This document shows positions 14,634 through 36,582 of a stretch of DNA of 36,582 nt, piece after piece (the stretch's first letter is position 1; each line of letters starts with the position of its first letter). Under the pieces are notes generated by a model. It was given only the letters and a program-made list of their open reading frames with translations. It made no database searches and was not told the origin of the DNA. The stretch is from Thermoplasmatota archaeon. Lineage in GTDB: Archaea; Thermoplasmatota; Thermoplasmata; SG8-5; JACRNV01. The DNA is taken from NCBI GenBank assembly GCA_040753455.1, contig JBFMEL010000003.1, positions 1 through 36,582 on the forward strand. Direction: 5' to 3'. Made by a program: the position numbers and the translations under genes.

Positions 14634-14642
14634 CCTTTCACC

Positions 14643-17505: not shown

Positions 17506-17598
17506 GAAACGCCCCCTTTGCAGGGGGCAACTAAAAGTGGAGGATAAAGGTTTTGGATGCGTGCCACAGCGGGAAACGCATCGGTACACTGGGGAGCG

Positions 17599-19346: not shown

Positions 19347-19347
19347 T

Positions 19348-20489: not shown

Positions 20490-21794
20490 TTGGCAGAAAA
20501 CAAATATCCCACGGAACCCCTGAGGTGCTGGGAAAAGGCAAAGAAGATCAGGATGGACTACTACAAGGGCTTCGCAGAGGCGCGTGAGAGAGGGGGGCTG
20601 AGATGGGCAGGCGGTGCCTGGTCCTTCGACGCGATCCCTGCAGGGCTGGGCGATGATGTCTATCCGCTTACTGGCGAGCCCTACGGCGCAAGCACAGCGT
20701 TCAACAAGGAGCAATCGCTCAAGTGCCTCGAAGCCACGGAGAAGGCGGGCTGGGCAAGGGACCTCTGCTCCTACATGAGGAACTACTGGGGATCGATCAT
20801 CTTGGACGAATATACGTTCGGAGGCAGGTTCCCCAAGCCTGATTTCCTCTGGCAGGACCACATATGCTGCTCGCACGCAAAATGGTACCAGGTCGCCAGG
20901 GAGCTGGAAGGTGGGAAGGTCCCGTACTTCTGCATCGATGTGGCTGCAGGTCCAGAAGATGAAATCACGGAGCACGGGATCGAGTATCTCGTGGGCCAGA
21001 TGCACGATGGCATAGAATGGCTCGAGAACGTCACAGGGCGCAAGTACAACGACAACATGCTGATCAAGGCTGTGTACAACGAGTGCAGGGCCACCAGCAC
21101 ATGGGCAGAGATATGCTGCCTCAACAAGCAGATCCCTGCCACCTTGGACGAGAAGACGATGTATTCCCTGTACGTGCTTGGGACATTGAAGAAGCACAGC
21201 CAGGAGGTCGCTGATTTTTACGAGGAGCTCAGGGACGAGATGAAGGACAGGGTGGCAAGGGGCATAGCTGCGATACCCAACGAGCGCTGCAGGGTGATGA
21301 CAGACACCCAGCCTCCATGGGGCTTCCTCAACGTCTTCAGGTACATGGAGAAATATGGATGCGTCTCTGTGGGCAGCCTGTACACCTTTGCGCTGATCGG
21401 CGCATGGGAGGTGAAGCCCGACGGCACATGGGGTCCGAGGACCACACCACAGCAGAGAGGGATCACTATAAAAGACAGGGACCAAGCCCTCAGGGTACTG
21501 GCGGAATGGAACCTCCACAAGCCCGAGTGGCAGCACTTCTACTCCTGCCATCTCAAGAGCGAGATGATGGTGCGCATCGCGAGGGAATGGAGCCTGAGCG
21601 GTGTAATGCTGCACTACAACAGGGGGTGCGAGGGCTTGAGCCTGGGGATCGCAGAGAACCGCCTAGCCCTCCTGGAGGCAGGCTTTCCAGTCATGGTCTT
21701 CGAGGGGAACATGGGGGACGAGCGCGAGTTCGATGAGGCAAGGACGATGGCGCGCATCGACACCTTCATGGAAACCCTCGGGATAAAGAAATAG
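20490..21794 (+). CDS. bzdO: Benzoyl-CoA reductase, Bzd-type, subunit O (TTG start)
   Basis: [43 protein letters not shown] and [11 protein letters not shown] motifs; SD GGAGGTG. Confidence 0.9.
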
Positions 21795-21805: not shown

Positions 21806-22588
21806 ATGCTGACCGCAGGTATAGATATGGGTGCGAAGAACATCAAGGTCGTGCTCCTTCGCGGGGATAGAACGATCGCGGCAAAGGCTCTGGTCCCCGC
21901 AGGACTCGAAGCCAGGGCGAACGCTGAGAAGGCGCTTCAGAAGGCACTCGAAACCGCGGGTGCGAGCATTGATGAGATCGCATATGTTGTGGCTACAGGC
22001 GCCGGGCGCGAGGACGCACCCCATGCCAACGGTACGATCACGGAGGTTTCCGCGGATGTGAAAGGGATACTGTTCACCCATCCGACCGTGCGCACGGTGA
22101 TCGCCGTGGGTGCGGAGGAGGGAAGGGGCGTGAGGTGCGACGAGCACGGCAGGGTCATAGACTTCGCGGTGAACGAGAAGTGCGCAGCCGGGGCAGGGGC
22201 GTTCACAGAGGCGATGGCGCGCGCGCTCGAAGTCCCGCTCGAAGAGCTTGGACCCCTTTCCCTCAGGTCCACGCAGGCAGTGCCGATGAACGCGCAGTGC
22301 GTGGTCTTTGCAGAATCGGAGGTGGTGACGCTGGTGCATGCCCAGACTCCCAAGGAGGATATAGCGAGGGCTGTCCACGACGCGATCGCTGACAGGATCG
22401 TCTCGATGGTGCGCAAGGTAGGGTTCGAGAAGGATATCGCCATAGTGGGCGGCATGGCGCACAACCCAGGGTTCGTGCAGGCTGTCAAAAGAGATTTGGA
22501 GAGCGATGTGATCATCCCCGATGACCCGATGTACGTGGGCGCGCTCGGCGCCGCGCTGCATGCCGCAGAGAGGGCAGGAGGTGGATGA
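21806..22588 (+). CDS. bzdP: Benzoyl-CoA reductase ATP-binding (ASKHA activase) subunit P
   Basis: AGIDMG, ATGAGR, NEKCAAGAGAF and QCVVFAESE motifs. Confidence 0.88.
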   Translation: MLTAGIDMGAKNIKVVLLRGDRTIAAKALVPAGLEARANAEKALQKALETAGASIDEIAYVVATGAGREDAPHANGTITEVSADVKGILFTHPTVRTVIAVGAEEGRGVRCDEHGRVIDFAVNEKCAAGAGAFTEAMARALEVPLEELGPLSLRSTQAVPMNAQCVVFAESEVVTLVHAQTPKEDIARAVHDAIADRIVSMVRKVGFEKDIAIVGGMAHNPGFVQAVKRDLESDVIIPDDPMYVGALGAALHAAERAGGG

Positions 22589-22589
22589 G

Positions 22590-23459
22590 ATGCCCGAGGA
22601 GTTCTGGCGCTGGACAGAATCGAGATGGACCTCCCCCGAGATCGATTGGAGGGCGGGGAAGATCATCTCTGCAGGCGTGGATGTAGGCTCTGTGAGCACG
22701 CAGGCTGTGGTGATGGTGGATGGGAAGCTGTACTGCTACAGCAACATGAGGACCGGCTCCAGCAGCCCAGACAGCGCCAATAAGGCGATGGCATGGGCGC
22801 TCGAAGGCACGGGGCTGGAGATAGCGAACCTTCATTACACCGTGGGCACAGGCTATGGCAGGGTGAACGTGCCGTTCTCGCAAAGAGCAATTACAGAGAT
22901 CGCATGCCATGCGCGTGGAGCAAATTTTATGTACGGTCCCAGCGTGAGGACAGTGCTGGACATGGGCGGGCAGGACTGCAAAGCGATCCGCTGCGACGAG
23001 AAGGGGAAGGTGATGAACTTCCGCATGAACGACAAGTGCGCTGCAGGCACGGGTCGCGGCATGGAGGTCTTCGCGGACCTGCTCTCTCTGCCCATTACCC
23101 AGGTGGGTGAGCTCTCGCTGGATGTGGATGTCGAGCCCCCGCCTGTCAGCAGCACATGCGTGGTCTTTGCAAAGTCCGAGGCTACGGGACTCCTGCGCAA
23201 GGGCTGGCCAAAGAACAAGGTGCTGGCAGCCTACTGCTCTGCAATGGCGCACCGCATCGCCACCCTCTTAGAGCAGATAGGGATAGAGAAGGAGTTTGCG
23301 ATCACAGGCGGGATCGCGAAGAACATAGGGGTGGTGCAGAGGCTGGAGAAGGAGATAGGGATCAAGGCTCTCAAACCAGAGCTCGACACGCAGATCGCAG
23401 GCGCGATCGGTGCAGCGCTCTTCGCAAAGGCGCTGGCAGAGAAGGAGAAAAAAGGATGA
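22590..23459 (+). CDS. bzdQ: Benzoyl-CoA reductase ATP-binding subunit Q
   Basis: N-terminal EFWRW.E, GVDVGSVS, GTGYGRV, DMGGQDCK, NDKCAAGTGRG and SSTCVVFAKSE motifs. Confidence 0.9.
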   Translation: MPEEFWRWTESRWTSPEIDWRAGKIISAGVDVGSVSTQAVVMVDGKLYCYSNMRTGSSSPDSANKAMAWALEGTGLEIANLHYTVGTGYGRVNVPFSQRAITEIACHARGANFMYGPSVRTVLDMGGQDCKAIRCDEKGKVMNFRMNDKCAAGTGRGMEVFADLLSLPITQVGELSLDVDVEPPPVSSTCVVFAKSEATGLLRKGWPKNKVLAAYCSAMAHRIATLLEQIGIEKEFAITGGIAKNIGVVQRLEKEIGIKALKPELDTQIAGAIGAALFAKALAEKEKKG

Positions 23460-23743
23460 AAGCCAGCTATGGCTACACTGACGGCTCAGGGGGATACTAC
23501 ATCATCGTGGACACGGAGCAGTGCACAGCATGCGGGTTGTGCGTCCAGGCATGCAGATGGGGCGTGATGGAGGTGGGCGAGGACGAGCACGACCCGCTCA
23601 GCGATCGTTTAGTTGCTAAGGTCTCCGAGGCTCACAGGAAGAAGATAAAATATTCCTGCGCGCAGTGCAAGCCCGCCTCCAAGCAGATCATACCGCCATG
23701 CATATCCTCATGCGCCCCCAAGGCAATAGAGCACAGCTGGTGA
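23456..23743 (+). CDS. bzdM: BzdM-like ferredoxin
   Basis: YGYTDGSG.YYI, CTACGLCVQAC and KYSCAQCKP...PCISSC...IEHSW; ATGA overlap with bzdQ. Confidence 0.85.
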   Translation: MKASYGYTDGSGGYYIIVDTEQCTACGLCVQACRWGVMEVGEDEHDPLSDRLVAKVSEAHRKKIKYSCAQCKPASKQIIPPCISSCAPKAIEHSW

Positions 23744-23761
23744 GCGCTCCATGGAGGGGTG

Positions 23762-24244
23762 ATGGGTTCGAATGTCCGGGATGTAGTAAGGGGGGCAATA
23801 GCCCGCAGGGGGGCAGCCCCGATCCAGATCCTGCAGGATGTGCAGCAGGCGCTCGGCTACGTGCCCGAGATCGCTGTCGATATGATGGCTGAGGAGCTGG
23901 AGATCCCTGCCACGCAGATATACGGGATACTGACGTTCTATGCCCAGTTCAGGCTTGCGCCCCCTGGGAAGCATTCGCTGAGGGTGTGCCAGGGCACTGC
24001 CTGCCATGTGATGGGCAGCGAGCGCATCCTGGACTATCTCCAGGGCGTCTTGGGCGTTGGCGTGGGCGAGACCACTGAGGACAGGCGCTTCACACTCGAG
24101 CGCGTGGCATGCGTCGGCTGCTGCGGCATGGCGCCCGTGGTCGTGTTAGATGGAGTGCCACATGGCAATATGAGCATCCGCGCTGTCGAAGCGCTCATAG
24201 GCGCGTATGGTAAGAGCGCTCACGGGCATAGTGCTGAGGTTTGA
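23762..24244 (+). CDS. NuoE/HydC-like [2Fe-2S] subunit
   Basis: ILQDVQ...GY, TFYAQF, CQGTAC and CVGCCGMAP motifs. Confidence 0.92.
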   Translation: MGSNVRDVVRGAIARRGAAPIQILQDVQQALGYVPEIAVDMMAEELEIPATQIYGILTFYAQFRLAPPGKHSLRVCQGTACHVMGSERILDYLQGVLGVGVGETTEDRRFTLERVACVGCCGMAPVVVLDGVPHGNMSIRAVEALIGAYGKSAHGHSAEV

Positions 24245-24393
24245 GAAGGGGCGCTGGTGGGCTTGGGAAACCAACTTCGCAGAGGTGTAGGGAAAATAGA
24301 TATAGGGGGTCGGGGATAGGGACTCGTGAAGGCTATGAACGGCAGCAGAGAGGTACGTCAACCCGAGATCTGGAGTATATGAGGAATGAAAAC

Positions 24394-24684
24394 ATGGAAA
24401 GAAAAAAGCACATAGACATTTGCATACGGCATTTATTCTGTATACTGTTAATACTAGCTTTATTTTGTTTTTTTATTTTACTACCTAATAAAAGATTTGT
24501 ATTTGGCTCAATTCTTGTCTTATTGACATCTCTTTATGTTATAAACTTATGGTTCGATCACCAGATTCGGCAAAAACAGTTAGATTATAAATTATATATT
24601 AAGAAACGAGTTTTGATTACAGTTATTGTAGCTATTATATTTTTAGTCGTAGCAACATTAATAATTTACTGGTACGGAGGATGA
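24394..24684 (+). CDS. Small AT-rich membrane protein (about 3 TM helices)
   Basis: Three hydrophobic stretches; GAGG upstream; AT-rich codon usage unlike the flanking genes. Confidence 0.6.
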   Translation: MERKKHIDICIRHLFCILLILALFCFFILLPNKRFVFGSILVLLTSLYVINLWFDHQIRQKQLDYKLYIKKRVLITVIVAIIFLVVATLIIYWYGG

Positions 24685-24751
24685 AATAACCTTGAACGTA
24701 GTATGTAATGTTTCTGTTTCCCAAATTTATGAGAAAAAAGAAGAGGAAAAA

Positions 24752-25142
24752 ATGTCAAACAAAAAATTAGTTGTATTAGGCATGACTGTAGCCTTAGCGA
24801 TAGCAACATTAATCCAGACCTCAATGATTGTGGTGGCACTGCCGCCCACAGTGACTTACCACAGTCCCACTGGATCGACCGCACCAGTGAGTTCCTACAT
24901 TGAGGTTGCATTTGACAAAATTATGAATCATGCAAGGATTAGGAGGTGTATCCGTGGATGGTATGGGCTTTAATGTTGGGTTAATAGGCACCTCAGAAAT
25001 TCTAAAGGATCCGTTCGATGAGATCACTACTCCAATCACTGCTTTCACTGCAGGATTTTTAAATGGTGTCTGTCTCTTCGTAGACGGTGTAGGCATAATC
25101 CAAAATACTGAAACTATGTTGGCTGGACTTGCAGGTGGTTAA
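24752..25142 (+). pseudogene. Chimeric remnant: signal peptide + Ig-domain start, then an out-of-frame Gly-rich hydrophobic C-terminal fragment
   Basis: MSNKKLVVLG...LPPTVTYHSPTGSTAPVSSYIEVAFDKIMNH matches the N-terminus of 25785-28685. Similarity stops at 24931, and another frame (24930-25142) then reads QGLGGVSVDG...MLAGLAGG*. Confidence 0.6.
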
Positions 25143-25964
25143 ACAGATGAGAATGAACAATGATTTTGGAAGACTATTATACGCTCCTAACAAATATAGG
25201 GAACCCCATGAAGCGAAAAAACATGCGATGAGATTATTTCGTACAGTGTTTTTTCTTACGCTTGGACTTTATCTCTTTCTAATAATCTTAGATATAATCA
25301 ATGGATTCAATTTCGAATCCTCATTATCATTTTATTTTGTTCTACTTCTCGGTTTTTCTGTTATTTGGGTTATGTTATTTGTGTGGTATTTAGTATTTCA
25401 AAAAACGAATTGGTCAGCGATTTTTGAAAAGGGAATAGCCCCTCCTATGATTCCTCTAAAATATGCTAAAGAGGGGAAGAGATTTATACCATATCAAGAA
25501 ATAGAAAGAATCACTATCAAAAGAGACGAAGTGGTGGATTACTATGGAAAAAAGCATTGCTGGCACTTTGTCTTTCACCTAAAAGATGGTGTACAAGTAG
25601 ATATGTTTCGTTCATCATTAATGACTCACGACACAGAAGAAAATATTGAGCGAGAATATCAGATATTAAAATATATTATGGACCACCTTGATGAAAAAGT
25701 AGAGTTTACAGCAGAAGAAATCGGAGTTCAACCAATGAGTGAAGATTTTTATAGGGATTTTGTTACCGATAAAGAGGAGTGCTGATGAATAAAAGAAAGG
25801 TTATAACCGCAACTCTACTTATTATTATGATTGCAACAGTCTCAATCCAGACATCGATGATTGCCGCGGCGCTGCCGCCCACAGTGACTTACCACAGTCC
25901 TACTGGATCGACCGCCCCAGTGAGTTCCTACATTGAGGTTGCATTTGACAAAATTATGAATCAT
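24839..25964 (+). repeat. 93-bp direct repeat (24839-24931 and 25872-25964), 2 mismatches
   Basis: CTGCCGCCCACAGTGACTTACCACAGTCC(C/T)ACTGGATCGACCGC(A/C)CCAGTGAG...ATTATGAATCAT read in both places. Confidence 0.95.
25147..25785 (+). CDS. Membrane protein, 2 TM helices plus a PH-like soluble domain
   Basis: Two TM segments followed by IFEKGI...FIPYQEIERI (bacterial PH-like pattern); AT-rich; TGATG-coupled to the next gene. Confidence 0.7.
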   Translation: MRMNNDFGRLLYAPNKYREPHEAKKHAMRLFRTVFFLTLGLYLFLIILDIINGFNFESSLSFYFVLLLGFSVIWVMLFVWYLVFQKTNWSAIFEKGIAPPMIPLKYAKEGKRFIPYQEIERITIKRDEVVDYYGKKHCWHFVFHLKDGVQVDMFRSSLMTHDTEENIEREYQILKYIMDHLDEKVEFTAEEIGVQPMSEDFYRDFVTDKEEC

Positions 25965-28685
25965 ACTTCATTGGAGGCGGCGTTTTCGATTACCCCTTTT
26001 GTAAGCGGAACATTCTTTTTCGAAGTAGAACCCACAACTTCATTGGTATACATCCCAGATTCTGATCTCGCATATGGCACGACTTACAATGTTAGTATAA
26101 ATGGAAGTGTAGCAAAGGACCAGGCTGGAGAGTTCTTAGATGGAGATGGAGACGGAATAGCAGAGGGGAGTCCAATCGATGATTACAGTTGGGAGTTCAC
26201 CACGGAACTACCAGATACAACACCACCCACAGTTACTACAGCGAATCCAACAGGAACAGATGTGTCGATCACCTCAATAATCACAATTTCATTCAACGAA
26301 AGCATGAATCAAAGCTCTGTTGAAGCAGCATTTTCAATATTTCCACCGATTGGGGGAAACTTTTCATGGGGAGAAGAGCTTGGTGTCAACACGGTGGGTT
26401 TCTATCCCTTAACCAACCTAGCAACAAGTACAACATATAATGTAACAATTAATGCCAGTATCGCAAAGGACATAAATGGGAATTACTTAGATGGTAATGG
26501 TAATAGCACTGCAGAGGGATCACCAACTGATGATTATACCTGGAATTTCACAACAGAAGCCGTGGATTTGATACCGCCTAATGTGACTTATGCGTCTCCA
26601 GTCAGCATAAATATCAATGTGGCAAGCAATATAATCATTAGGTTTAGTGAATATATGAACCATACTTCTGTTGAGGAGGCCTTTCTATTATCTCCATCGG
26701 TCATCGGTACATTCTCGGAAGTGGATTCTTATGGAGAGACAACACTAACTTTTGACCCGGATACTAATTTGGCCTATGGCACAACTTACAATGTTAGTAT
26801 AAATGGAAGTATCGCTAAAGATCTAGCGGAAAATTATCTTGACGGGAACAAAAATGGAACCTCAGAAGGTAGCCCGGTAGACGACTATAACTGGTCATTT
26901 ACTACTAAACCGCCGGATGTTACACCACCTACAATAACATTCTCGACACCAACTGGAATTAATGTGCCTGTCAATACAAACATAACTATCAAGTTTAGTG
27001 AATTTGTAAACTACACATCTGTAGAAATTGCCTTTACCATTTTTCCTAGTGGGACGGGAACATTTGTATTTGAGGATGAGGGAATTACATATATGGTTTT
27101 TGACCCCGATATAGCTCTTTCATATGGAACAACATATCACATCACCTTGAATGCTAGTGTAGCAAAGGACCTATTTGGAAACTATTTAGATGGAAATGGA
27201 AACGGAATAGCAGAGGGGAGTTCAACCGATGATTACAGGTGGGAATTCACTACAGAACAAGAATCCATCCCCCCGACTGTTATATCTCATTCGTCTACAG
27301 GATCCGGGGTTCTCGTTTCGACCAATATTACTATTCTGTTCAGTGAATCTATGAACAAGACCTCTGTAGAACAGGCCTTCAATTGCACGCCGTACATTTC
27401 TGGAACATTTAATTGGAACGGAAACAACAATGTGAGTTTTGTACCTGATATGGAGCTTGAATATAATACCACATACAACATAACCTTGAACTCAAGTATC
27501 GCTAAAGACAGCTCTGGAACTCTCCTAGATGGCAATAGCAATGGAACAGCAGACGGATCCCCAATTGATGACTATTCGTGGACTTTCAAGACAGAGCAAG
27601 CGCCGGACACTGCCCCACCCATTGTAATTGGCAACTCCCCTAAAGGTCTTGGCGTCAACGTGGCATCAATCATATCCATAACTTTCAGTGAATTGATGAG
27701 CCAAAGCTCTGTTGAGGCTGCATTTTCAATGTTTCCCGCTGTCTCGGGCTCGTTCAGTTGGAGTGGGAATATTTTCAGTTTCACTCCAACGGTGAATCTT
27801 TCTCATGATACAGCCTACTCGGTTATGGTTAACGGCTCTCTGGCAAAAGATCTTTCGGGCAACACCCTGGACGGTAACGGAAATGGCGTGGCACAGGGTT
27901 CGCCCGTTGACGACTTTGTCTGGACGTTCACCACAGTTCCAGACACGACAGCTCCAGCCGCTATCATGGATCTGGTTGCAACGCTGGGTCCTACCAATAG
28001 CGTCAATCTGACGTGGACGGCTCCAGGAGACGACGGTAACGTAGGAACGGCCACCAGCTACGACATAAGATATTCAACTGTCCCGATAAATGAGACCAAC
28101 TGGGCGAATGCTATATATGTAACCGGCGAGCCGACACCATCTGTTGCCGGCACTGTACAATGGATGTCCATTTCCGGGCTGACCGAAGGTTATACCTACT
28201 ACTTTGCAATGGTTGCATCGGATGAGGTGCCAAACCACTCCCCGCTGTCGAACGTCGCCAATGTAACCATCGAGGAGTCGGCGGACACAACGCCACCTGC
28301 GGCCCCGACTGGGCTGGCGGCTACCACCGAGACTACCGGCATCAGGGTAGCCTGGAGCGCGGTCGCGGACGCAAGCTTCTATTCGATCTACCGGAGCACG
28401 GACGGCGTCGCCTTCGAGCTGCTAGCTAACGTCACTGCCACTTCGTATCTAGACACCGCCGGTCTGGTGAGCGGCACGACATACTATTACATAGTGACAG
28501 CGATTGACGCCGCTGGCAACGAATCCCCGAACTCTACCACCGCGCACGCGACGTGGACTGTGCCGTCGCCGGACGATGGAAGTGATTACACGATCGTAAT
28601 CGTTGTAATCGCAATAGGATTAATCCTAGGCGCAATCGTAGGCTCCAAACTTCTCAGGCACAGGAAGGGCGGGAAGACCGAATAA
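25785..28685 (+). CDS. Cell-surface protein: signal peptide, 6 Ig-like (Big_5/SbsA-type) repeats, 2 FN3-like domains, C-terminal TM anchor
   Basis: Six units PP.V....P...F...MN..SVE.AF...LDGN.NG...GSP.DDY.W.FTT, then LTWTAPGDDG...YDIRYS, PPAAPTGL...YYYIVTAID.AGNES, a hydrophobic helix and a basic tail. Confidence 0.9.
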   Translation: MNKRKVITATLLIIMIATVSIQTSMIAAALPPTVTYHSPTGSTAPVSSYIEVAFDKIMNHTSLEAAFSITPFVSGTFFFEVEPTTSLVYIPDSDLAYGTTYNVSINGSVAKDQAGEFLDGDGDGIAEGSPIDDYSWEFTTELPDTTPPTVTTANPTGTDVSITSIITISFNESMNQSSVEAAFSIFPPIGGNFSWGEELGVNTVGFYPLTNLATSTTYNVTINASIAKDINGNYLDGNGNSTAEGSPTDDYTWNFTTEAVDLIPPNVTYASPVSININVASNIIIRFSEYMNHTSVEEAFLLSPSVIGTFSEVDSYGETTLTFDPDTNLAYGTTYNVSINGSIAKDLAENYLDGNKNGTSEGSPVDDYNWSFTTKPPDVTPPTITFSTPTGINVPVNTNITIKFSEFVNYTSVEIAFTIFPSGTGTFVFEDEGITYMVFDPDIALSYGTTYHITLNASVAKDLFGNYLDGNGNGIAEGSSTDDYRWEFTTEQESIPPTVISHSSTGSGVLVSTNITILFSESMNKTSVEQAFNCTPYISGTFNWNGNNNVSFVPDMELEYNTTYNITLNSSIAKDSSGTLLDGNSNGTADGSPIDDYSWTFKTEQAPDTAPPIVIGNSPKGLGVNVASIISITFSELMSQSSVEAAFSMFPAVSGSFSWSGNIFSFTPTVNLSHDTAYSVMVNGSLAKDLSGNTLDGNGNGVAQGSPVDDFVWTFTTVPDTTAPAAIMDLVATLGPTNSVNLTWTAPGDDGNVGTATSYDIRYSTVPINETNWANAIYVTGEPTPSVAGTVQWMSISGLTEGYTYYFAMVASDEVPNHSPLSNVANVTIEESADTTPPAAPTGLAATTETTGIRVAWSAVADASFYSIYRSTDGVAFELLANVTATSYLDTAGLVSGTTYYYIVTAIDAAGNESPNSTTAHATWTVPSPDDGSDYTIVIVVIAIGLILGAIVGSKLLRHRKGGKTE

Positions 28686-28732
28686 CACGCGGAGAACAGC
28701 CTCTGAGGTAGAGTCGAATAAACTCGAATCCC

Positions 28733-28789
28733 GCTATTACGGCAAACAAGCGTTGGCTATTACGGCAATAGACGGTTGCCGCAGGTAGC
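28733..28789. repeat. Subterminal repeats at the end of a transposon remnant
   Basis: GCTATTACGGCAA at 28733-28745 and 28756-28768, plus a degenerate inverted copy TTGCCGCAGGTAGC at 28776-28789. Confidence 0.7.
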
Positions 28790-28798
28790 CAGTATCTC

Positions 28799-29389
28799 TC
28801 ACTCGACGGAAACCCCCATGAGCGATTTTGCCTCTGCTCTGCTCTCTGGCTGCACCCTGATGAATCGTCGTGCCATCCCTGCCAGGGAGCCGTAGACAGC
28901 CTGAACATATTCTCTGTCAGTTAGGTTCAGTGCCAAGAGCATCCCTACGCCTTCTCGCTGTACCTGCGCCTCGACATCCTCATTCCCCTTTATGCGTCGT
29001 CCGTGTCTCCGTGTTTTACGGAAGTCGCTTTCATCTGGTGTATTCGTTCTTGGAAGTTTTCTGATAACGTTTCTCCCGTTGACTTTGACCCTGACATTTG
29101 GGGCGAACAACTCTTCCCTGTGCTCTTCGATAAGATTGCCTACCTTCCGTAGTGCCTTTTTCAATTCCCGGGAGTGATGATCGGTTGCACCGCGTTCATC
29201 GAACTCCTGGCTCTTCTCGAGCACCCGGTCGAGTTTCTTCCTGCCCTTTTCGAGGTCTTTCTCCGACAGGGAGATACGCGTGCTCAGGGGGATGGGACCG
29301 TTCCGGTATCTGAGCGCCTTCCTGACACGCTGGAACCATGACCAACGTATCTTCAGGGCTTCGAAATCCGAGTGCAATTTGCCAAGCAC
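28799..29389 (-). pseudogene. 5'-truncated transposase (C-terminal part)
   Basis: LPRTNTPDESDFRKTRRHGRRIKG resembles the RTNN..E..FR..RR motif of DDE transposases; basic composition; no N-terminal half or SD. Confidence 0.6.
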
Positions 29390-29590
29390 TATGGGTGGTG
29401 GTCGCAGCAGCCGCAGGGATGTGGAAGCAATATCTCATCCTCCCGAGGACAAAGCCCCAACGCCAATGGAACCAAGGGGGCGCTGGAGGTGAAATGCTGA
29501 TGGAACCTTCTGCACGACATACACTGGAGCGCAAAAGAGGCAGCGAGCACGCAGCAATCGGGGTGTGCGCGCTGATACGAACGAGAAGCG

Positions 29591-29637
29591 AAAGATGCAA
29601 AAGAAACAAAAGAAAAGTTTTTGCATCCCTTGTTTCT
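29591..29637. promoter_or_regulatory. Repeat/inverted-repeat operator-like array upstream of the ATPase gene
   Basis: AAAGATGCA-AAAGAAACA-AAAGAAAAG 9-bp tandem units, followed by inverted TTTTGCATC and TTGTTTCT. Confidence 0.5.
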
Positions 29638-29653
29638 ATTGGTCGTGATATCC

Positions 29654-30805
29654 ATGGCTAACCCGTTCATGCGTTCCACGGGCAATCCGCCGAGAAAGTT
29701 CGTTGGCAGGGAGTTGGAACTGTCGGAGTTGATGCGTGCGCTTGATCATACCAAAGCAGGGATGCCAGAGCACACGATTATGTTCGGGCAGTTCGGCATC
29801 GGGAAGACCTCGCTACTCATCGAGTTCCGAGCGCGCGCAAAAGACGTATATGCTGTCAGGATACCGTTGTTCGCCACCGGCGATATATCGGAGATATGCG
29901 ACATTGTGCTGAGAGAGGCAAGAAGTCAGCTCGATCTCAAACCGCAAAAATTGAGGGGTCGCTTGGTCCAATTCGGGTTCACCGTCTTCGGTACTGGCGC
30001 GAGCCTCACCCTCGGCAAAGTGCAAATGAATCCCCAGTCCGCGCTCAAGGAGATCCTAGCCACGATCCATCACCAACTTCCTGAGGGGTCCACGCTGGTC
30101 CTGATGCTCGACGATCTCCACCGCATCACAGGCGAAGGAGGGATGGACGCTAGGAAGGTCTTCACCGTGCTGAGCAATGTGCTCCTTCAATTGAACCAAG
30201 ATAAAAGAAAAATAATGTTCGTGGGCACAGGTTCCCACGACATCCTCAGGATTATTCGCGCACACGACGAAGCGAGCGTTCGAATATTCCACCCGCAGGA
30301 GGTCCCGCCGCTGTCGCTTGAAGAGACACGCGCTGTAATTCGGGAACATGCTAAAGAGGAGGGGGCGGAGTTCTCTGAGGAGGTAATCACCAAGATTCAC
30401 GAGCTGTCTGAAGGCATCCCATACTACATACACATACTGAGTTATTACTGTTTTGAAGCGCGAGAAGACTCGCAAGTGCGCTCGAACGCCTTCGAGCGAG
30501 GCTTTCCGCGGGCATTGAACGACCTGGCAGAAAAAGAGTTCGAAACGATGTACAAAGGTATTAGCAATGGAGCCAAAAGGGTGCTCGCTGCCATGGTGGA
30601 ATCAAGAAAGAGAACGTTGCGCTACAGTGAGATAAAGAGGCTTGCGGGCAGTGAGGTCTCGGTATATCTGAGTGAATTGAACGAGAAAAATCTTATTGTG
30701 AAGGACGGGCGCGGGAAGTACAGAGCTCGGGACAGGTTATTTGCGGAATACCTGCACTCGCACAAGCCGTATATGAGAAACGGAACCATAGAGGGGCGAG
30801 AATGA
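29654..30805 (+). CDS. Archaeal AAA/STAND ATPase with C-terminal winged-helix domain
   Basis: NPF....FVGRE.E, Walker A GQFGIGKT, Walker B LMLDD, EGIPYY and C-terminal L.EL.EKNLI.K.GRGKY...D.LF motifs. Confidence 0.88.
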   Translation: MANPFMRSTGNPPRKFVGRELELSELMRALDHTKAGMPEHTIMFGQFGIGKTSLLIEFRARAKDVYAVRIPLFATGDISEICDIVLREARSQLDLKPQKLRGRLVQFGFTVFGTGASLTLGKVQMNPQSALKEILATIHHQLPEGSTLVLMLDDLHRITGEGGMDARKVFTVLSNVLLQLNQDKRKIMFVGTGSHDILRIIRAHDEASVRIFHPQEVPPLSLEETRAVIREHAKEEGAEFSEEVITKIHELSEGIPYYIHILSYYCFEAREDSQVRSNAFERGFPRALNDLAEKEFETMYKGISNGAKRVLAAMVESRKRTLRYSEIKRLAGSEVSVYLSELNEKNLIVKDGRGKYRARDRLFAEYLHSHKPYMRNGTIEGRE

Positions 30806-30848
30806 GGGCGGATATTGACGTGATAGAGCAGTTTGTGGGTGAACACCA

Positions 30849-31367
30849 ATGACCGATGCGCAGAGTATCTCACAACCACCACTCATAGGGCGGGACAAGG
30901 AACTAAATGAACTCAAGACCCGCTTAGAGAACGCTTCCCAATCCCAGGGCTCCACTGTCCTCATCTCTGGCGAAGCCGGCATAGGCAAGACCCGCCTGGT
31001 CTCGGAGCTCATCAAGGACGCGGAATCCGGGGGCTGCCAGATCATCCGGGGCTGGTGCCTTGCCGAGAGCCTGGAGCCGCTGTTCCCGTTCAAGACCGCG
31101 TTCCGGGAGGTCGGGATGCACCATCTGATCGCCGGGGCGCCGCCCCCGAAAGTGATCTCGGCGTACCTGATGAACGAGGCTGGGATCCTTGCAGCCAGGG
31201 CGGAGCGCGAGGAGTCCGGGCTGGATCCCGACATCTTCACCTCGATGATGAAGGCGAAGGGCGACTCCTCCAGGGCCAAGGAATATCTCGAAATAGCCCT
31301 CTCCGGGTTCGAGCGCATGGGGATGAAGATGCGGGCTGAGAAAGCGAAGAGGGCGAGGGAGGGATGA
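30849..31367 (+). pseudogene. Internally deleted STAND ATPase-TPR gene (N-terminus fused in frame to the last TPR helix)
   Basis: LIGRDKEL...ISGEAGIGKTRL...GWCL....PLFPF is present but Walker B is not. After DPDIFTSMM (~31250) it jumps to KAKGDSSRAKEYLEIALSGFERMGM, a TPR C-terminus. Confidence 0.75.
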
Positions 31368-33160
31368 GGATGGTCAGGGTGGGGAATGCCGTGCCTGATG
31401 TTCCAACTATACTGGTGTGCCAGGGGGCGAGCGGGCTCTCCGCGGGTGCGCTGGGGATCATGGATGCGTTCGAGGAGGAGCTGAAAAAGCACTCCTCCCA
31501 TCCCTCGCTGTCCAGGGGTTACAGGGTGAAGCGCGTGGGGGACAGAGGGCTCTTCATCGACCCTCTGGTGGACGTGCTGATGCCCGACGGCTCGCGCACC
31601 ACATACGCGCGCCTGACCCTTACCGATGTACCGAAGATCGTGGAGCAGCACATCTTTGGCGGCAGGGTGGTGGAGGAGTGCCTGGCAGGTGAGGATTACA
31701 CGAGGTTCTTCGAGGGGCAGCAGAGGATAGTGCTCAGGCACTGCGGCGAGATCGACCCTGAAGACATAAACGACTACGTGGCGCATGGCGGCTTCACTGC
31801 CCTGCGCAGGGCGCTGTCCATGACACCGGAGCAGGTCATAGACCTGGTGAAGGCTTCTGGGCTCAGGGGCAGGGGGGGCGCAGGGTTCCCCACAGGGCTC
31901 AAGTGGGGGTATGCCAGGGCTGCGAAGGGCACTGAGAAATACGTGATATGCAATGCGGATGAGGGCGATCCTGGTGCGTTCATGGACCGCTCGCTGCTCG
32001 AGGGCGATCCCATGGCTGTGATCGAGGGGATGATCATCGCTGCCCATGCGATAGGCGCGGGCAAGGGTTTTGTCTACTGCCGCGCAGAATACCCGCTGGC
32101 TGTGGAGCGCGTCACCAAAGCGATAGAGAATGCGGAGAACGCGGGCTACCTGGGCAAGAAGATATTGGGGACCGGGCACTCCTTCGAGATCGCGCTCAAG
32201 GAGGGTGCGGGGGCGTTCGTCTGCGGGGAGGAGACTGCGCTCATCGCCTCGATCGAAGGAAGGCGGGGCGAGCCGAGACCCAGACCTCCTTTCCCTGCGG
32301 AGAGCGGGCTGTGGGGCAAGCCAACCATAATCAACAATGTGGAAACGCTGGCTACCATCCCCCTCATCATAGACAACGGTGCTGAGTGGTTCAGCGCCAT
32401 GGGGACAGAGCACAGCAAGGGCACAAAGGTCTTCGCGCTCGCCGGACGGGTGAAGCGCACAGGGCTTGTGGAGGTGCCGATGGGCACGAGCCTGCGCCAG
32501 GTGATCTTCGGACCCGGGGGCGGGATGGCAAGGAAGGGTCGTGGGCTCAAGGCTGTGCAGATCGGCGGACCCTCTGGTGGCTGCCTGCCAGCCAGCGCCT
32601 TAGACACCCCGATAGACTATGAAACGATCACAGCCACAGGTGCGATCATGGGCTCGGGCGGCATGGTGGTCATGGACGAGGGCACATGCATGGTGGACAT
32701 CGCGCGCTACTTCCTCAGCTTCACTGTCAAGGAATCCTGCGGCAAGTGCGTCCCATGCAGGATGGGGCTGAAGCAGATGCTGGATATTCTAAACAGGATC
32801 GCAAAGGGCGAGGGCTCGCGCGCAGACCTCGAAAGACTGGAGCGCATTGCAAAGGTGGTGAAGGAGACAGCCCTCTGCGGTCTGGGACAGACAGCCCCGA
32901 ACCCTGTGCTCACCACCCTGCGCTACTTCAGGGACGAGTATGAAGCGCATATCACGGGCAGATGCCACGCAGCAGTCTGCACTGCACTGACCAGGTTCGA
33001 GGTGGATCCTGACAGATGCAAGATGTGCGGCAGGTGCAGCACCGCCTGCCCAGTGGACGCTGTGTCCTGGGCTCCTCGCACCCTCCCCACCATCGATAAA
33101 AAGAAATGCATACGATGTCGCGCATGCATCGAGGCATGCGAATATACGGCGATAAGGTGA
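31364..33160 (+). CDS. NuoF/HydB/BamH-like FMN-NADH subunit with C-terminal 2x[4Fe-4S]
   Basis: GLRGRGGAGFPTG, NADEGDPGAFMDR, GEETAL, GGPSGG, ESCGKCVPCR, CKMCGRC...CP and CIRCRAC...C motifs. Confidence 0.93.
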   Translation: MRMVRVGNAVPDVPTILVCQGASGLSAGALGIMDAFEEELKKHSSHPSLSRGYRVKRVGDRGLFIDPLVDVLMPDGSRTTYARLTLTDVPKIVEQHIFGGRVVEECLAGEDYTRFFEGQQRIVLRHCGEIDPEDINDYVAHGGFTALRRALSMTPEQVIDLVKASGLRGRGGAGFPTGLKWGYARAAKGTEKYVICNADEGDPGAFMDRSLLEGDPMAVIEGMIIAAHAIGAGKGFVYCRAEYPLAVERVTKAIENAENAGYLGKKILGTGHSFEIALKEGAGAFVCGEETALIASIEGRRGEPRPRPPFPAESGLWGKPTIINNVETLATIPLIIDNGAEWFSAMGTEHSKGTKVFALAGRVKRTGLVEVPMGTSLRQVIFGPGGGMARKGRGLKAVQIGGPSGGCLPASALDTPIDYETITATGAIMGSGGMVVMDEGTCMVDIARYFLSFTVKESCGKCVPCRMGLKQMLDILNRIAKGEGSRADLERLERIAKVVKETALCGLGQTAPNPVLTTLRYFRDEYEAHITGRCHAAVCTALTRFEVDPDRCKMCGRCSTACPVDAVSWAPRTLPTIDKKKCIRCRACIEACEYTAIR

Positions 33161-33164
33161 GAAC

Positions 33165-35417
33165 ATGGTCGTCCTGAGGATCGATGGTCGCGATATCTCT
33201 GCCCACACAGGGATGACCGTGATGGAGGCTGCCCACGCGGCAGGGATATACATCCCAGGGCTGTGCAGCCATCCTGCCCTTCCGCCTTCGGGTGCCTGCA
33301 GGCTCTGCATCGTAAGGATCGAGGGAGTGAAAGGCTTGCCCACCGCATGCACCACCCCTGTGAGAGAAGGGATGGTGGTGACCACGAAGGATGAAGGACT
33401 GCAGCAGATGCGCAGGGAGATCCTCAGCCTCCTGATGGCAGACCATCCACATGCATGCCTGGGCTGTGCCCAGAGAGAGGGCTGCACCAGGGAGCCGTGC
33501 TCCACGAACGTGGCTCCGGAGGAGCGTTGCTGTCCCAGGCTCGGCAACTGCGAGCTCCAGAAGGTCGTGGAATACGTGGGGATACGAGAGGACACACCGA
33601 AATATCTTCCAAAGGAGCGCAGGCAGGACACAGAACCTCTTCTCCACAGAGATGAACGCTTGTGCATCCTCTGCGGACGATGCGTGAGGGCATGCAGCGA
33701 TCTGAGGGGCGTTGGAGCCATAGGGTTCGTCACCAGAAGCTTCGAGCTGAGGGTTGGGACCGCGTTCTCGCGCAGCCTTGCAGATGCCGACTGCCGTTTC
33801 TGCGGCGCATGCGTCGAGGTCTGCCCCACAGGCGCCCTCACAGACAAGGATGTTGCACCAGGTCCGAAGGAGGAGGTGCTGGTGCCTTGCAGAGCCTCCT
33901 GCCCCGCAGGTGTGGACGTGCCCCTGTTCCTGCGCTTTATCGCCGAGGGCAGGCACGCAGATGCGTGCAGGGTGCTGCGGCATGCCCTTCCCTTGCCCGG
34001 CACGATCGCCTACATATGCCCGCGCCCATGCGAGGAGCGCTGCAGGCGCGGGAAGATCAACGAGCCGGTCGCCATCGGGGATATACAGGTCTTCGCCGCC
34101 GCCCATGACGACCTCTCCTGGAAAGGTGGAATGCCAGCCTCCACAGCAAAGAGGATCGCGGTCGTTGGCTCTGGACCAGCAGGGCTCAGCGGCGCTTACT
34201 TCCTGCGGCTCAGGGGATATGGGGTCACGATCTTCGAGAGAGAGGAGAAGCTGGGCGGCATGCTGAGGGCGATCCCATCCTTCAAGCTCCCGAGAGATGT
34301 GCTGGACAGGGAGATCACTATCCTCCTCGATATGGGGATCGAGGCTGTGCCGGGCGCGGAGATCGAGGATCCTGGAGACCTCATCGCCCAGGGATACGAT
34401 ACCGTGCTCTGGGCAACGGGTGCAATAGCGCAGCAGCCGAGGATCGAAGGGATGGAGCTGCCAGGGGTGGCTCGCGCCCTCGACATCCTCAGAGATCCTG
34501 GGATATCTCCAGGACAAAAGACTGCGGTCTTCGGCTCAGGCTATGAAGCGCTTGAAGCTGCAAGGCTGGTGAGGCGCACGGGCGCGGATACCGCACTCCT
34601 TGTGCCGAAGGATGAGTCCCTCATACCCCCTAAGGAGCTCAGGATGGCGCAGGAGGAGGGGATAAGGATCAGCACGGGGCTCAGCATTACCAGGATATAC
34701 CGCACGGACGGCATGCTCAGATGCATCCTCTCCAGCGGCGAGGAGACAGAAGCCCATACCCTGCTCATAGCGCAGCGGAGCACCTGTCCGGAGGTCAAGA
34801 AGGCTCAGAAGGTCTTTGCAGTGGAATGCGGTGCTGCAGGCAAGGAGACCAGCGCCGTGGAGGCTGTCGCCTCTGGGCGAAAAGCAGCAGAGGCTATCGA
34901 TAGGTTTCTAGGGGGAGATGGCACTATCCCAGCCCTTCTCTCTTCTGAGCCACAGAAACAAAATATCGGACGGATCAGAGGGTTTGCCAGCCTGAAGCGC
35001 ATGGATGCAGAGTCCCCCCCCTCCGCAAGATTGGCAGGAGCGCCCGACCTCCAGCAGATGGACGAAGAGCACTGCGCCCGTGAGGCAGCACGATGCCTAC
35101 GCTGCGATCTCAGGCTTCTGATCCCTGCGCCGCGTCTCCCGCCCGAGGCATGGCTGCCGCTGACCCTCGATGCAATAGCCTCGGTGCCGCACGCAGAAGG
35201 GGTCTATACCCTGCGCGACAATGAAGGAAAGGTGCTGAAGATCAAGGGCGCGCCTGACCTGCACGTCGCCCTCGAAGGCGAGCTGTCCTCCGCCGCATTC
35301 TTCGAGTTCGTCCTGGACAAGATGTACTCGAAAAGGGAGAGCGAGCTCCTCCAGCAGTACGTCCAAAAATACGGGCGCATGCCAGAGGGCGCGGGCGACC
35401 TCGATGAGCTGTTCTGA
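33165..35417 (+). CDS. BzdV-like multidomain Fe-S flavoprotein (NuoG-type N-terminus + GltD-like FAD domain + small C-terminal domain)
   Basis: IPGLC...GACRLC...PTAC, H...C..C, CILCGRC, CRFCGAC, PCRASCP...CPRPCEERC, VVGSGPAG, EAARCLRCD and C-terminal GVYTL...RESELLQQY motifs. Confidence 0.85.
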   Translation: MVVLRIDGRDISAHTGMTVMEAAHAAGIYIPGLCSHPALPPSGACRLCIVRIEGVKGLPTACTTPVREGMVVTTKDEGLQQMRREILSLLMADHPHACLGCAQREGCTREPCSTNVAPEERCCPRLGNCELQKVVEYVGIREDTPKYLPKERRQDTEPLLHRDERLCILCGRCVRACSDLRGVGAIGFVTRSFELRVGTAFSRSLADADCRFCGACVEVCPTGALTDKDVAPGPKEEVLVPCRASCPAGVDVPLFLRFIAEGRHADACRVLRHALPLPGTIAYICPRPCEERCRRGKINEPVAIGDIQVFAAAHDDLSWKGGMPASTAKRIAVVGSGPAGLSGAYFLRLRGYGVTIFEREEKLGGMLRAIPSFKLPRDVLDREITILLDMGIEAVPGAEIEDPGDLIAQGYDTVLWATGAIAQQPRIEGMELPGVARALDILRDPGISPGQKTAVFGSGYEALEAARLVRRTGADTALLVPKDESLIPPKELRMAQEEGIRISTGLSITRIYRTDGMLRCILSSGEETEAHTLLIAQRSTCPEVKKAQKVFAVECGAAGKETSAVEAVASGRKAAEAIDRFLGGDGTIPALLSSEPQKQNIGRIRGFASLKRMDAESPPSARLAGAPDLQQMDEEHCAREAARCLRCDLRLLIPAPRLPPEAWLPLTLDAIASVPHAEGVYTLRDNEGKVLKIKGAPDLHVALEGELSSAAFFEFVLDKMYSKRESELLQQYVQKYGRMPEGAGDLDELF

Positions 35418-35578: not shown

Positions 35579-36582
35579 CTATGAAAAACTTCCTCTGGAC
35601 ACCTCCATGCTCTCGTCCTTGATAAAGCTTCCCTCCTTCGGGAATTCCACCGCAGGGACGGGTTTCAAAGGGTGTCCCTGCGGCTTTTTCGCCCCCTTTG
35701 GAACCATGCATCGAAGGCTGGCTTTGTCTTCCATTCGTTCTATCTTCTCTGCGTAGAGTGGTAGATCGATGTTGTGGTACTCTGTTTTATCCCTCAGCAT
35801 ATAGTAGATGATCCGTAGGAGGTGCCGGGCTGTAGCTACACGGGCAATCATCTTGCCTCGCCGTCGCGATATGCGGTTGTATGTCTTCTTCAGCTTCGGG
35901 TTATTCTCTTTCGCTTTTATCCCTGCTTCTACTAAGATCCATCGCAGGTTTCGATTCCCCTCTTTTGTTATGTGTCCATGCCTGACAGTCTCTCCACTGT
36001 TCCGCACCGAGGGCACTAAACCTGCATAGCTTGCCAGCTCCCTGTAACTAGGAAATCGCCCGACATCTCCGATCTCGTTCACTATCACCTGGGCGCTGTA
36101 GAAATCTATCCCCGTGATCTCCATCAAACGCCTCACGTCTTCATCCCATACTGCTTGTCGCGCCATAGTGGCTTGGATCTGTTCAATCTCTTGCTCTATC
36201 GCCTCCAGCTGACGGAGGAGACTCTCCAATACCTCTCTGGTAAGCTCCGGCAGCTCTATTCTTGTCAGGAACTGGCGCCCACTCTTGCCGAACAAATCCG
36301 TGAATTCCTGTGTGACCCAGTTCGTACTCAGCAGGGCATGAACTCTGTTCTTCACTTGGGCTGCATTCTGCCCCAACCAAATCCGATGTCTTAGAAGCTC
36401 GCGCATCTCCCTGATCTGCTTTGGTGGCACGTATGCTCTCGGCAGGAAATCAGACTGGAGCAGCTTCGCCAGTATCCTGCTGTCTATCTTGTCTGTCTTG
36501 CTCTTTGACATGGCAATCGCATGAACGTCCTTGCTGTGGGCTACGGACACTGTATAACCCCATCCCTCCAAGAGATCCACGA
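35579..36582 (-). mobile_element. IS110-family transposase (5' part outside the window)
   Basis: KTDKIDS (last two Asp of DEDD), ITGI.....IVNEIGDVGRF, SYAGLVPSVRNSG (catalytic Ser), GNRNLRWILVE and VATARHL motifs. Confidence 0.93.
35650..35683. repeat. Perfect 10-bp inverted repeat near the IS110 3' end
   Basis: CCGCAGGGAC-N14-GTCCCTGCGG, followed by CTTTTT on the + strand. Confidence 0.8.

Follow-up and report, generated by a model that had tools for sequence, protein, structure and literature searches.

A NuoE-NuoF pair with a BzdV-type fusion protein in the bzd operon of a Thermoplasmatota archaeon: a candidate electron-donor module of a benzoyl-CoA reductase of class I

The window described here is a complete contig of 36,582 nt (36.6 kb; contig JBFMEL010000003.1, C3 in our numbering) from the metagenome-assembled genome (MAG) of a Thermoplasmatota archaeon. 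On its plus strand it carries the genes of a bzd-type benzoyl-CoA reductase and, downstream of them, genes for a ferredoxin, NuoE, NuoF and a fusion protein of the BzdV type. We propose that NuoE, NuoF and the BzdV-type protein are probably the C, B and A subunits of a complex of the HydABC/Bfu family, recruited as the ferredoxin-side donor module of the reductase. The proposal draws on gene content, the family features of the three proteins, a conserved synteny, the erosion of one domain of the fusion protein, and a predicted docking between the A and B subunits. The open reading frames (ORFs) and Pfam confirm the ferredoxin, NuoE, long NuoF and NuoG-N/GltD fusion of a first-pass annotation at the limits listed here, and with them its motifs for NuoF and the lack of any H-cluster or molybdopterin domain in the fusion.

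19315..20478, plus strand: BzdN, subunit of a bzd-type class I benzoyl-CoA reductase (TIGR03190, 494 bits against a cut-off of 454; Pfam HGD-D)
20505..21794, plus strand: BzdO (TIGR03191, 680 bits against a cut-off of 449; the ORF opens at 20211 and the family match begins at ORF residue 99)
21806..22588, plus strand: BzdP-like ATPase subunit of the BcrAD_BadFG family (PF01869, 5e-47; TIGR00241, 206 bits)
22521..23459, plus strand: BzdQ ATPase subunit, probable start Met at 22590 (TIGR03192, 422 bits against a cut-off of 380)
23456..23743, plus strand: ferredoxin of 95 residues, the BzdM equivalent, its start overlapping the bzdQ stop (Pfam Fer4)
23759..24244, plus strand: NuoE, BfuC-type, with 2Fe-2S ligands C77, C82, C118 and C122 (Pfam 2Fe-2S_thioredx, about 1e-44 to 8e-44)
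31364..33160, plus strand: NuoF, BfuB-type, 598 residues (Complex1_51K, SLBB, NADH_4Fe-4S, two Fer4; alignment A2)
33165..35417, plus strand: BzdV-type, BfuA-like subunit, 750 residues (Fer2_4, NADH-G_4Fe-4S_3, Fer4_Nqo3, Fer4_20, Pyr_redox_2, DUF7508)

Three subunits of a Bfu-type complex

NuoF consists of a degenerate N-terminal thioredoxin-like domain, an FMN/NADH domain with the B1 [4Fe-4S] cluster (Complex1_51K, 1.5e-46; NADH_4Fe-4S, 1.5e-34), a His/3-Cys site and a C-terminal 2x[4Fe-4S] domain, with the motifs GAFM at residues 204-207, GGPSG at 401-405, H529..C534..C539, and two CxxCxxCxxxC stretches past residue 546. Nine PDB entries match it over its full length at E <= 1e-150, and they are B subunits of several types of complex: NiFe-HydABCSL (7t2r_B), the NfnABC enzymes of Thermococcus sibiricus and Caldicellulosiruptor saccharolyticus, StnABC, three HydABC hydrogenases, and 9mqx_B. 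The two best are 7t2r_B (1.5e-228) and 9n5u_B (2e-220), and solved BfuB chains are matched from residue 12-16 to residue 597; the matches of the non-bifurcating proteins FdsB of formate dehydrogenase (443 bits) and Nqo1 (411 bits) both end near residue 528.

The diagnostic residues point the same way. H529 corresponds to H525 in 7t2r_B and to H524 in 9n5u_B and is invariant in all eight sequences of alignment A2; Schut et al. 2022 (PMC9304861) give this His as present in all but 8 of 1558 BfuB proteins and in no non-bifurcating homolog. C442, C534 and C539 align with C437, C529 and C534 of the B2 site of T. sibiricus NfnB, which is likewise of the His+3Cys type and is described in section 6 of PMC12018979 as holding zinc; the position of the fifth B2 ligand (C476 of A. 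mobile) is Ala in NuoF. The two Fer4 stretches at 546-597 align to the B3/B4 domain of 7t2r_B and 9n5u_B, and GAFMD is common to NuoF (A205, M207) and 7t2r_B (A202, M204), residues of the A202/M204 type in the FMN/NADH site being named as a BfuB feature in Schut et al. 2022 (PMC9304861). On these features NuoF is a BfuB with an unusual, cluster-less N-terminal domain. PDB-search scores and diagnostic residues are the basis of this placement, in which NuoF groups with the bifurcating BfuB/HydB proteins, as the first-pass annotation had supposed, and not with the Nqo1/FdsB types. NuoE retains all four of its Cys ligands, and only its last ~12 residues are unlike those of its relatives (alignment A4).

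The BzdV-type protein begins with a 2Fe-2S cluster, a His-ligated 4Fe-4S cluster and a 2x4Fe-4S domain, continues with a GltD-type Fe-S and FAD domain whose NAD(P)H subdomain is shrunken, and closes with DUF7508; Pfam finds no H-cluster, Fdh or molybdopterin domain in it. All of the BfuA/NuoG-N cluster motifs lie in the N-terminal 230 residues and are invariant across 52 sequences, and residues 240-590 are GltD/NfnL-like. The protein belongs to the BzdV-type family, being 38-63% identical to the proteins that follow bzd and ferredoxin genes in 47 + 25 loci of the survey described below; the name BzdV itself is taken from the source annotations of P0101 and of a Desulfatiglans homolog (as given in a table of PMC6849830). 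Relative to family members of ~840 residues it lacks ~90 residues of the NAD(P)H subdomain, and VEC has taken the place of the conserved GGD that precedes the last flavin-binding helix. A reduced BzdV design is common, since 32 of the 120 best database matches are short forms of 612-648 residues.

A confident AlphaFold2 (AF2) model of the fusion protein has a predicted local distance difference test (pLDDT) value of 86 and a predicted template modelling score (pTM) of 0.82. The top Foldseek matches of the model are StnA and the NfnA proteins of C. saccharolyticus and T. sibiricus, followed by NfnL (5jca_L/5jfc_L; TM 0.66-0.68 on the target). With phmmer, residues 3-98, 128-231 and 240-516 map to StnA residues 5-100, 572-677 and 102-391, and an orthology with StnA/NfnA was rejected because the domain order differs.

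We note two further features of the fusion protein. An insert at residues 104-129, after the motif of the His-ligated cluster, holds C112, C122, C123 and C129, which are invariant in 52 of 52 BzdV-family proteins; it is modelled unsurely (pLDDT <50 at 104-115) and may be an extra metal or cluster site. NuoG and HydA N-termini are not known to have such a site. DUF7508 (residues ~660-750; window 35140-35417) has a beta-beta-alpha-beta-alpha fold and a GVY...IKG pattern, and its acidic C-terminal tail is conserved. Every BzdV variant retains the domain, and in a lineage with a split arrangement (L092:13794-14942) it is fused to the NuoG-N-like protein that follows NuoF. DUF7508 is a candidate docking domain.

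Co-folding of NuoF with residues 1-240 of the BzdV-type protein gave a docking score of 0.80, the best of three controls scoring 0.00. At least 93% of contacts are shared between the runs, the partner has a pLDDT of at least 81, and the predicted interface brings NuoF 455-471 (the B1 motif) to BzdV 41-65 (the 2Fe-2S region). The docking mark is one that 116 of 157 solved complexes and 2 of 215 mismatched pairs attained, counts that are rough as our own alignments were used, and a prediction above the mark shows a likeness to solved Bfu complexes rather than binding of this particular pair. As to the three-subunit Bfu-like layout of the first-pass annotation, the cofactor motifs of the C and A subunits are present and a contact of A with B is predicted in the manner of BfuA and BfuB, but in the window the C gene lies 7,119 nt from the B gene.

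Three-subunit enzymes composed of NuoEF and a GltD/NuoG fusion have been characterised, and the window encodes a variant of them in another domain order and another context; the first-pass idea is thus one of a variant. NfnABC/StnABC of Sporomusa ovata (8oh5), C. saccharolyticus (9bov) and T. sibiricus (9n5u) also have a NuoE-like C subunit and a NuoF-like B subunit (full-length matches to NuoF, E 2e-220 to 4e-209), and their A subunits share an N-terminal 2Fe-2S domain, a NuoG-type 4Fe-4S domain, an NfnL/GltD-like flavin domain, and an RCLxC motif after the latter. They differ in that StnA/NfnA places the GltD block between the 2Fe-2S and NuoG Fe-S domains and continues with an Fdh-like domain, whereas the window fusion has the order 2Fe-2S, NuoG Fe-S, GltD, DUF7508 with no Fdh-like domain; further, the window set has an eroded NAD(P)H/FAD site, no B5 cysteines, and a setting in a benzoyl-CoA reductase operon. 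The HydABC and NiFe-HydABCSL enzymes provide the best NuoF match (7t2r_B) and have the same set of clusters at the A-subunit N-terminus, but the window lacks H-cluster or NiFe subunits and has Ala as the fifth B2 ligand. The BamGHI proteins of the class II enzymes (Bam-Bfu, Geobacter/Desulfosarcina) likewise put a BfuABC-type module on an aromatic-ring reductase, for which the part of PMC9304861 on this system proposes a merging of electrons from NADH and ferredoxin; that system differs in having HdrA-type and tungsten partners and no ATP, whereas the window partner is an ATP-dependent class I reductase and the A subunit is BzdV-derived.

The genome has its own Hdr-linked Bfu set elsewhere, on C1 (G000:C1:58000-71250; L003), which adjoins a 2-oxoacid:ferredoxin oxidoreductase and whose NuoF is 55% identical to that of the window. 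The order there is 2-oxoacid:ferredoxin oxidoreductase genes, a 1054-residue double HdrA-like protein, MvhD, an FrhB-like protein, HdrA, MvhD, an HdrA-N/NuoE fusion, NuoF, and a NuoG-N-like protein with extra Fe-S domains.

The bzd operon and the distribution of NuoEF

The reductase is of the bzd type, an ATP-dependent class I enzyme, with benzoyl-CoA or another aryl-CoA as its predicted substrate. PF01869 is matched in both ATPase subunits, i.e. a second BcrAD-type ATPase is encoded beside BzdQ. Elsewhere in the genome, Oah (559 bits) and a benzoate-CoA-ligase-type gene (395 bits against 375) score above their cut-offs, a Dch-like gene scores below its own (176 bits against 292.5), and the Had-like genes fall below the cut-off of 339, the best reaching 86 bits (C134) and the copy beside the Dch-like gene on C64 reaching 78+57 bits. 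Class I reductase genes with a BzdV gene nearby have already been published for Thermoplasmatota and Asgard archaea, in the passages of PMC9239135 and PMC8163825 concerned with these genes. Azoarcus sp. CIB, with BzdNOPQ-BzdM-BzdV, and the thn-type set of Desulfobacterium N47 (locus L063, bzdNOPQ-Fd-BzdV, Fd being the ferredoxin) are like the window in having a bzd-type reductase, a ferredoxin after bzdQ, and then BzdV; they differ in that the window inserts NuoE and NuoF between the last two. Canonical BzdV has ~840 residues, against 750 and a degenerate NAD(P)H/FAD site in the window, and the likeness to Azoarcus BzdV is one of family name.

The distribution of these arrangements was surveyed with the 750-residue BzdV-type protein as anchor, covering the best 80 of 551 confirmed loci in genome_contigs and 80 loci in metagenome_contigs, of which 42 had the full anchor and the other 38 matched its NuoG-N part alone. 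Loci are cited by their survey numbers, and counts are given for genome_contigs and then for metagenome_contigs.

bzd..Q-(ferredoxin)-BzdV with nothing between: 47 and 25 loci (together 72 of 122)
bzdNOPQ-Fd-NuoE-NuoF-BzdV: 2 (L005, L049) and 0
bzd-Fd-truncated BzdV-NuoE-NuoF-NuoG-N/DUF7508: 0 and 4
NuoEF beside a BzdV-like gene with a bzd-free flank: 3 (L004, L060, L070) and 1
Flank free of both bzd and NuoEF: 15 and 7
Upstream flank under 3 kb, arrangement not callable: 13 and 5

A ferredoxin 42-65% identical to that of the window follows bzdQ in most related loci. BzdV alone is the usual arrangement, and the full arrangement with NuoEF is rare (2 of the 49 genome_contigs loci having both bzd and BzdV) and confined to a single Thermoplasmatota clade, with four genomes (the window, L005, L049 and L217). 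The linkage to bzd on which the first-pass annotation depended is conserved to this extent: it recurs in L005, L049 and L217, but as a rarity of one clade. Among the 32 short-form BzdV proteins, gene context was covered for L004, L005 and L217, and a metagenome scan with the single window protein gave relatives mostly ~40% identical and none at 60%. In the order of the window genome (22 genomes searched), four others have the canonical bzd-Fd-BzdV without NuoEF; in the order of the genome of L005 (6 genomes), the full bzdNOPQ-Fd-NuoE-NuoF-short-BzdV occurs in G027. G023 combines a canonical bzd-Fd-BzdV operon with a free-standing NuoE-NuoF-short-BzdV set at a distance of 1.4 Mb.

In a quick IQ-TREE reconstruction of BzdV-like proteins (124 rows, SH-aLRT branch support, midpoint root; loci below 390 bits and the duplicate L203 left out), the five NuoEF-linked Thermoplasmata/Thermoplasmatota proteins form one group with an SH-aLRT value of 100, within which L049 is outermost, followed by the window and then the short forms. 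The nucleotide-site motifs follow the same order: L049 keeps GRGHAL and GGD, the window keeps GSGYEA and has VEC, and in L005, L004 and L217 the entire NAD(P)H subdomain is gone, with the FAD GxGxxG and a GD still in place. L106, the nearest neighbour checked that is without NuoEF, has GGGNVA and AGD; L108 has GGGNVA, with the GD region missing from the alignment; and the canonical BzdV relatives that were aligned have GGG(N/G)V with GGD, GGE or SGD.

A second, independent lineage shows what appears to be a similar donor swap. L092, L101 and L102 group apart from these proteins, as the sister group of the Desulfobacterium N47 type, and have likewise lost the NAD(P)H subdomain, and L119 joins them by gene order, bzd-Fd-BzdV (no NAD(P)H subdomain)-NuoE-NuoF-NuoG-N/DUF7508.

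The BzdV proteins of the order-mates are canonical, distant (41% identical) and in the other half of the tree from that of the window, and vertical inheritance within the order was rejected on this account. The placement suggests that the NuoEF-BzdV set of the window was acquired sideways, with the caution that the window protein sits on a long branch of 0.53.

These data bear on the possibility that the complex works as NfnABC/StnABC do, oxidising NADPH at the GltD FAD and splitting the electrons at the NuoF/NuoE core between NAD+ and BzdM. NfnA/StnA, the best matches by both sequence and fold, are built of the same cofactor modules, and T. sibiricus NfnABC catalyses this reaction (according to the sections of PMC9304861 and PMC12018979 on that enzyme). 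The model also has a folded Rossmann-like subdomain at residues 452-536 (pLDDT ~85-90) in which GSGYEA resembles GxGxxA, and L049, basal in the clade, keeps GGD. In the window, however, VEC stands in place of GGD, ~40 residues of the subdomain and the loop before the GD motif are missing, and the sequence LLVPKDES stands where a YRR-type motif would be expected; the three closest relatives keep NuoEF although the NAD(P)H subdomain is absent from them altogether; and the frequency of the short form among the best matches marks it as a stable design and not an accident. Because the NADPH site of the fusion is eroded here and deleted in the closest relatives, NADPH-driven bifurcation of the Nfn kind is doubtful, and we regard it as rather unlikely. 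The same observations speak against the coupling of pyridine nucleotides in the first-pass annotation, which assumes such a site.

The interval between nuoE and nuoF

nuoE and nuoF abut or overlap in all four relatives (L004, L005, L049 and L217) and are split only in the window genome, where both genes are intact. The interval between them is a mosaic.

24245..31363, no strand: intervening mosaic of 7,119 nt (GC content 0.28-0.44 at 24.3-27.7 kb)
24376..24684, plus strand: small hydrophobic ORF in the low-GC part, with a GC content at third codon positions (GC3) of 0.26
25129..25785, plus strand: membrane ORF of 218 residues, no family (ORF list, Pfam)
25779..28685, plus strand: surface protein of 968 residues, comprising six Big_5 repeats, fn3 and a membrane anchor at the C-terminus (Pfam Big_5, 6e-81; fn3)
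29407..29486, no strand: repeat of ~75 nt (blastn, 83-95% identity to C34, C129, C6 (three copies), C122 and C151)
29621..30805, plus strand: STAND/AAA_16 ATPase of 394 residues (Pfam nSTAND1, AAA_16, ATPase_2)
30849..31367, plus strand: AAA_16-TPR gene copy with an internal deletion (88% nucleotide identity to C13:10530-10983; its tail resembles the 3' ends of TPR genes)

One minus-strand ORF without a family also lies in this interval. The 5' end of the surface-protein gene is duplicated at 24811-24931 (repeats D1-D3), and paralogs of the protein on C95, C5, C34 and C143 are 31-44% identical to it (35-44% for the best-scoring). At the left border, a stretch of ~85 nt (24285-24365) is ~80% identical to C5:30931-31010 and marks a step from high to low GC at both places; it has no Rfam or tRNA match and could be an island border or an attachment-like sequence. 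Low-GC islands of the same kind are found on many contigs of the genome, whose mean GC content is 0.57. The ~75-nt repeat may be a small interspersed element, and the genome has at least nine AAA_16-TPR STAND ATPase paralogs, one of which is broken by the contig start (window 2-2611) and another of which is the deleted copy (30813-31367) immediately ahead of nuoF. The ends of the interval have no terminal direct or inverted repeats above chance size and no tRNA gene, and Rfam gives no match at E <= 0.1; an origin as a simple insertion sequence (IS), integron or integrative element was dropped for lack of such marks. We note that in an order-mate, L206 (G013:C54), the ferredoxin gene of the bzd set and BzdV are separated by ~5.2 kb, an interruption at nearly the same position of the operon.

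We read the interval as real variable DNA of this genome. That it is instead an artefact of the MAG assembly, with nuoE and nuoF truly adjacent, might be suspected from a metagenome assembly of 174 contigs and from the sharp fall in GC to 0.28, yet this is very unlikely: a misjoin would need to exit after nuoE and re-enter exactly at the start of nuoF, the right-hand 550 nt are a diverged (88%) paralog of a family of the same genome and not an identical repeat, the left border shares its ~85-nt stretch with another low-GC island border on C5, and comparable islands occur on many contigs.

The interruption also raises the question of whether nuoF-bzdV is a relic, uncoupled from bzd and decaying while other ferredoxin reducers serve the reductase. 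The interruption is unique to the window genome, the genes abutting in all four relatives; no other copy combines the loss of the GD motif with a subdomain that is shrunken but still there; its terminal branch is the long one noted above; and a copy of an IS110 element lies 160 nt downstream. Against these points, both ORFs are open at full length with all cluster ligands intact, and the GC3 values of nuoF (0.76) and bzdV (0.72) match those of the bzd genes. The stop of the AAA_16-TPR remnant and the start of nuoF moreover share an ATGA overlap, by which read-through could couple their translation. We hold decay to be quite improbable.

Outside the operon, the window includes the following neighbouring genes.

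18873..19346, plus strand: GNAT acetyltransferase, overlapping the bzdN start (Pfam Acetyltransf_1, 3e-13)
35579..36580, minus strand: IS110-family transposase gene, broken off by the contig end (Pfam Transposase_20, DEDD_Tnp_IS110)

A GNAT gene also precedes bzdN in L005, and in L004 it adjoins the short BzdV, downstream. Pieces identical to the IS110 copy are found at the ends of C38 and C144, and the contig stops right after bzdV because this multicopy element breaks the assembly. The genome as a whole (1.94 Mb, 93% complete) is archaeal; the minus strand of the window carries archaeal transcription genes at 4541-12686 (RpoH, an unsplit RpoB, RpoA' and RpoA''), and the closest protein relatives of the window carry the label Thermoplasmata. 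Also on the minus strand, at 13089-17589, two CitF-like (citrate lyase alpha/CoA-transferase) genes flank an HD-domain gene and a citryl-CoA-lyase-type gene; this group is directly upstream of an RQC/HRDC gene and the bzd operon.

Possible reactions of the complex

In the mechanism that we favour, NAD(H) would bind at the NuoF FMN instead of at the nucleotide site of BzdV itself, electrons would pass between the B1 cluster of NuoF and the N-terminal 2Fe-2S cluster of the BzdV-type subunit and then along its 4Fe-4S chain, and a low-potential ferredoxin would be served at the C-terminal 2x[4Fe-4S] domain of NuoF. Across the Thermoplasmatota clade the NuoEF core would functionally replace the decaying NAD(P)H-binding subdomain of BzdV. 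In the window genome, 7.1 kb of the genome's own variable DNA has additionally come to lie between nuoE and nuoF. What we infer is a role of the complex in serving the reductase, bifurcation or confurcation of electrons by it, the identity of a third substrate, and expression that continues after the split.

Several observations weigh against this proposal. NuoF has no B5 site, as only C19 of the four Cys is left and the others are S, D and L/F; the loss is common to all four Thermoplasmatota NuoEF-BzdV loci aligned (the window, L004, L005 and L049), and the part of Schut et al. 2022 (PMC9304861) on the clusters counts B5 among the invariant ones, although in T. sibiricus NfnB the B5 site binds zinc and is dispensable for bifurcation (Xiao et al. 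2025, section 6 of PMC12018979). A site for the third substrate of a Bfu enzyme is not evident in the fusion protein, with the GD motif lost, the subdomain shortened, and the domain gone in the closest relatives. The 7.1-kb interruption, with its minus-strand ORF, may uncouple nuoF-bzdV from the bzd promoter, and the module need not be dedicated to the reductase, since the NuoEF-short-BzdV set of G023 is so far from its bzd operon. The erosion of the NAD(P)H subdomain is not a general rule either, because L060, L116 and L070 have NuoEF near BzdV-like genes with an intact GltD. Finally, the NuoF of L092 shows no C-terminal ferredoxin domain and therefore points to plain NADH input in the second lineage.

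This last observation, along with the missing B5 ligands of the window NuoF, would suit a plain, non-bifurcating NADH:ferredoxin (BzdM) oxidoreductase in which the NADH/FMN entry of NuoEF has replaced the NAD(P)H/FAD entry of BzdV. Electron transfer from NADH to a low-potential ferredoxin is thermodynamically uphill, and NuoF retains the Bfu-specific His, the 3-Cys site, GAFM and the ferredoxin-like domain, features that are missing from non-bifurcating homologs. Such an enzyme is quite unlikely in our view, even though the passage of PMC5658619 on canonical BzdV regards it as a simple NADPH:ferredoxin oxidoreductase.

Another possibility is confurcation: NADH at NuoF and reduced pool ferredoxin at the C-terminal domain of NuoF would be merged and mid-potential electrons would leave through the BzdV chain to BzdM or the reductase, half of the electrons for ring reduction then coming from NADH. 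The BfuA branch is of mid potential in all Bfu enzymes, and the same logic has been proposed for BamGHI, in the corresponding part of Schut et al. (PMC9304861). Confurcation would account for the loss of the NAD(P)H subdomain from a protein that in every variant retains the Fe-S chain, FAD motifs and DUF7508, and the 2-oxoacid:ferredoxin oxidoreductase of the genome could charge the pool ferredoxin. The case is purely inferential, however, with the docking of BzdM on the BzdV-type subunit putative, and the flow through canonical BzdV is assumed to be the opposite, from NAD(P)H to ferredoxin, in the passage of PMC5658619 dealing with it. We consider this tentative scheme rather doubtful.

A literature search, with supplements such as the Bfu clade tables of PMC9304861 outside it, brought up no description of NuoEF within the operon of a class I reductase. 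It is conceivable, if rather improbable, that the set defines a new Bfu subtype, which might be called Bzd-Bfu, where NuoEF replaces the NAD(P)H subdomain of BzdV, the reductase ferredoxin or the reductase itself is the third, mid-potential substrate, and NADH and pool ferredoxin are confurcated. If this were true, the demand of a class I reductase for low-potential electrons would be halved, and L049, the window and the short forms would represent successive stages of replacement.

Within the broader proposal of a recruited Bfu-type donor module, a BzdV protein wired to a bifurcation-type NuoEF core is a concrete and testable suggestion for the electron donor of the reductase, and the stepwise loss of the BzdV nucleotide site in two independent lineages strengthens the case. 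Whether the subunits need to be translated together is a question for which the split operon offers a natural experiment, and a BfuB without any B5 ligands bears on the debate over the minimal bifurcating 'flavobicluster'. If the proposal is true, the Bfu family gains a member whose third substrate may be a dedicated ferredoxin.

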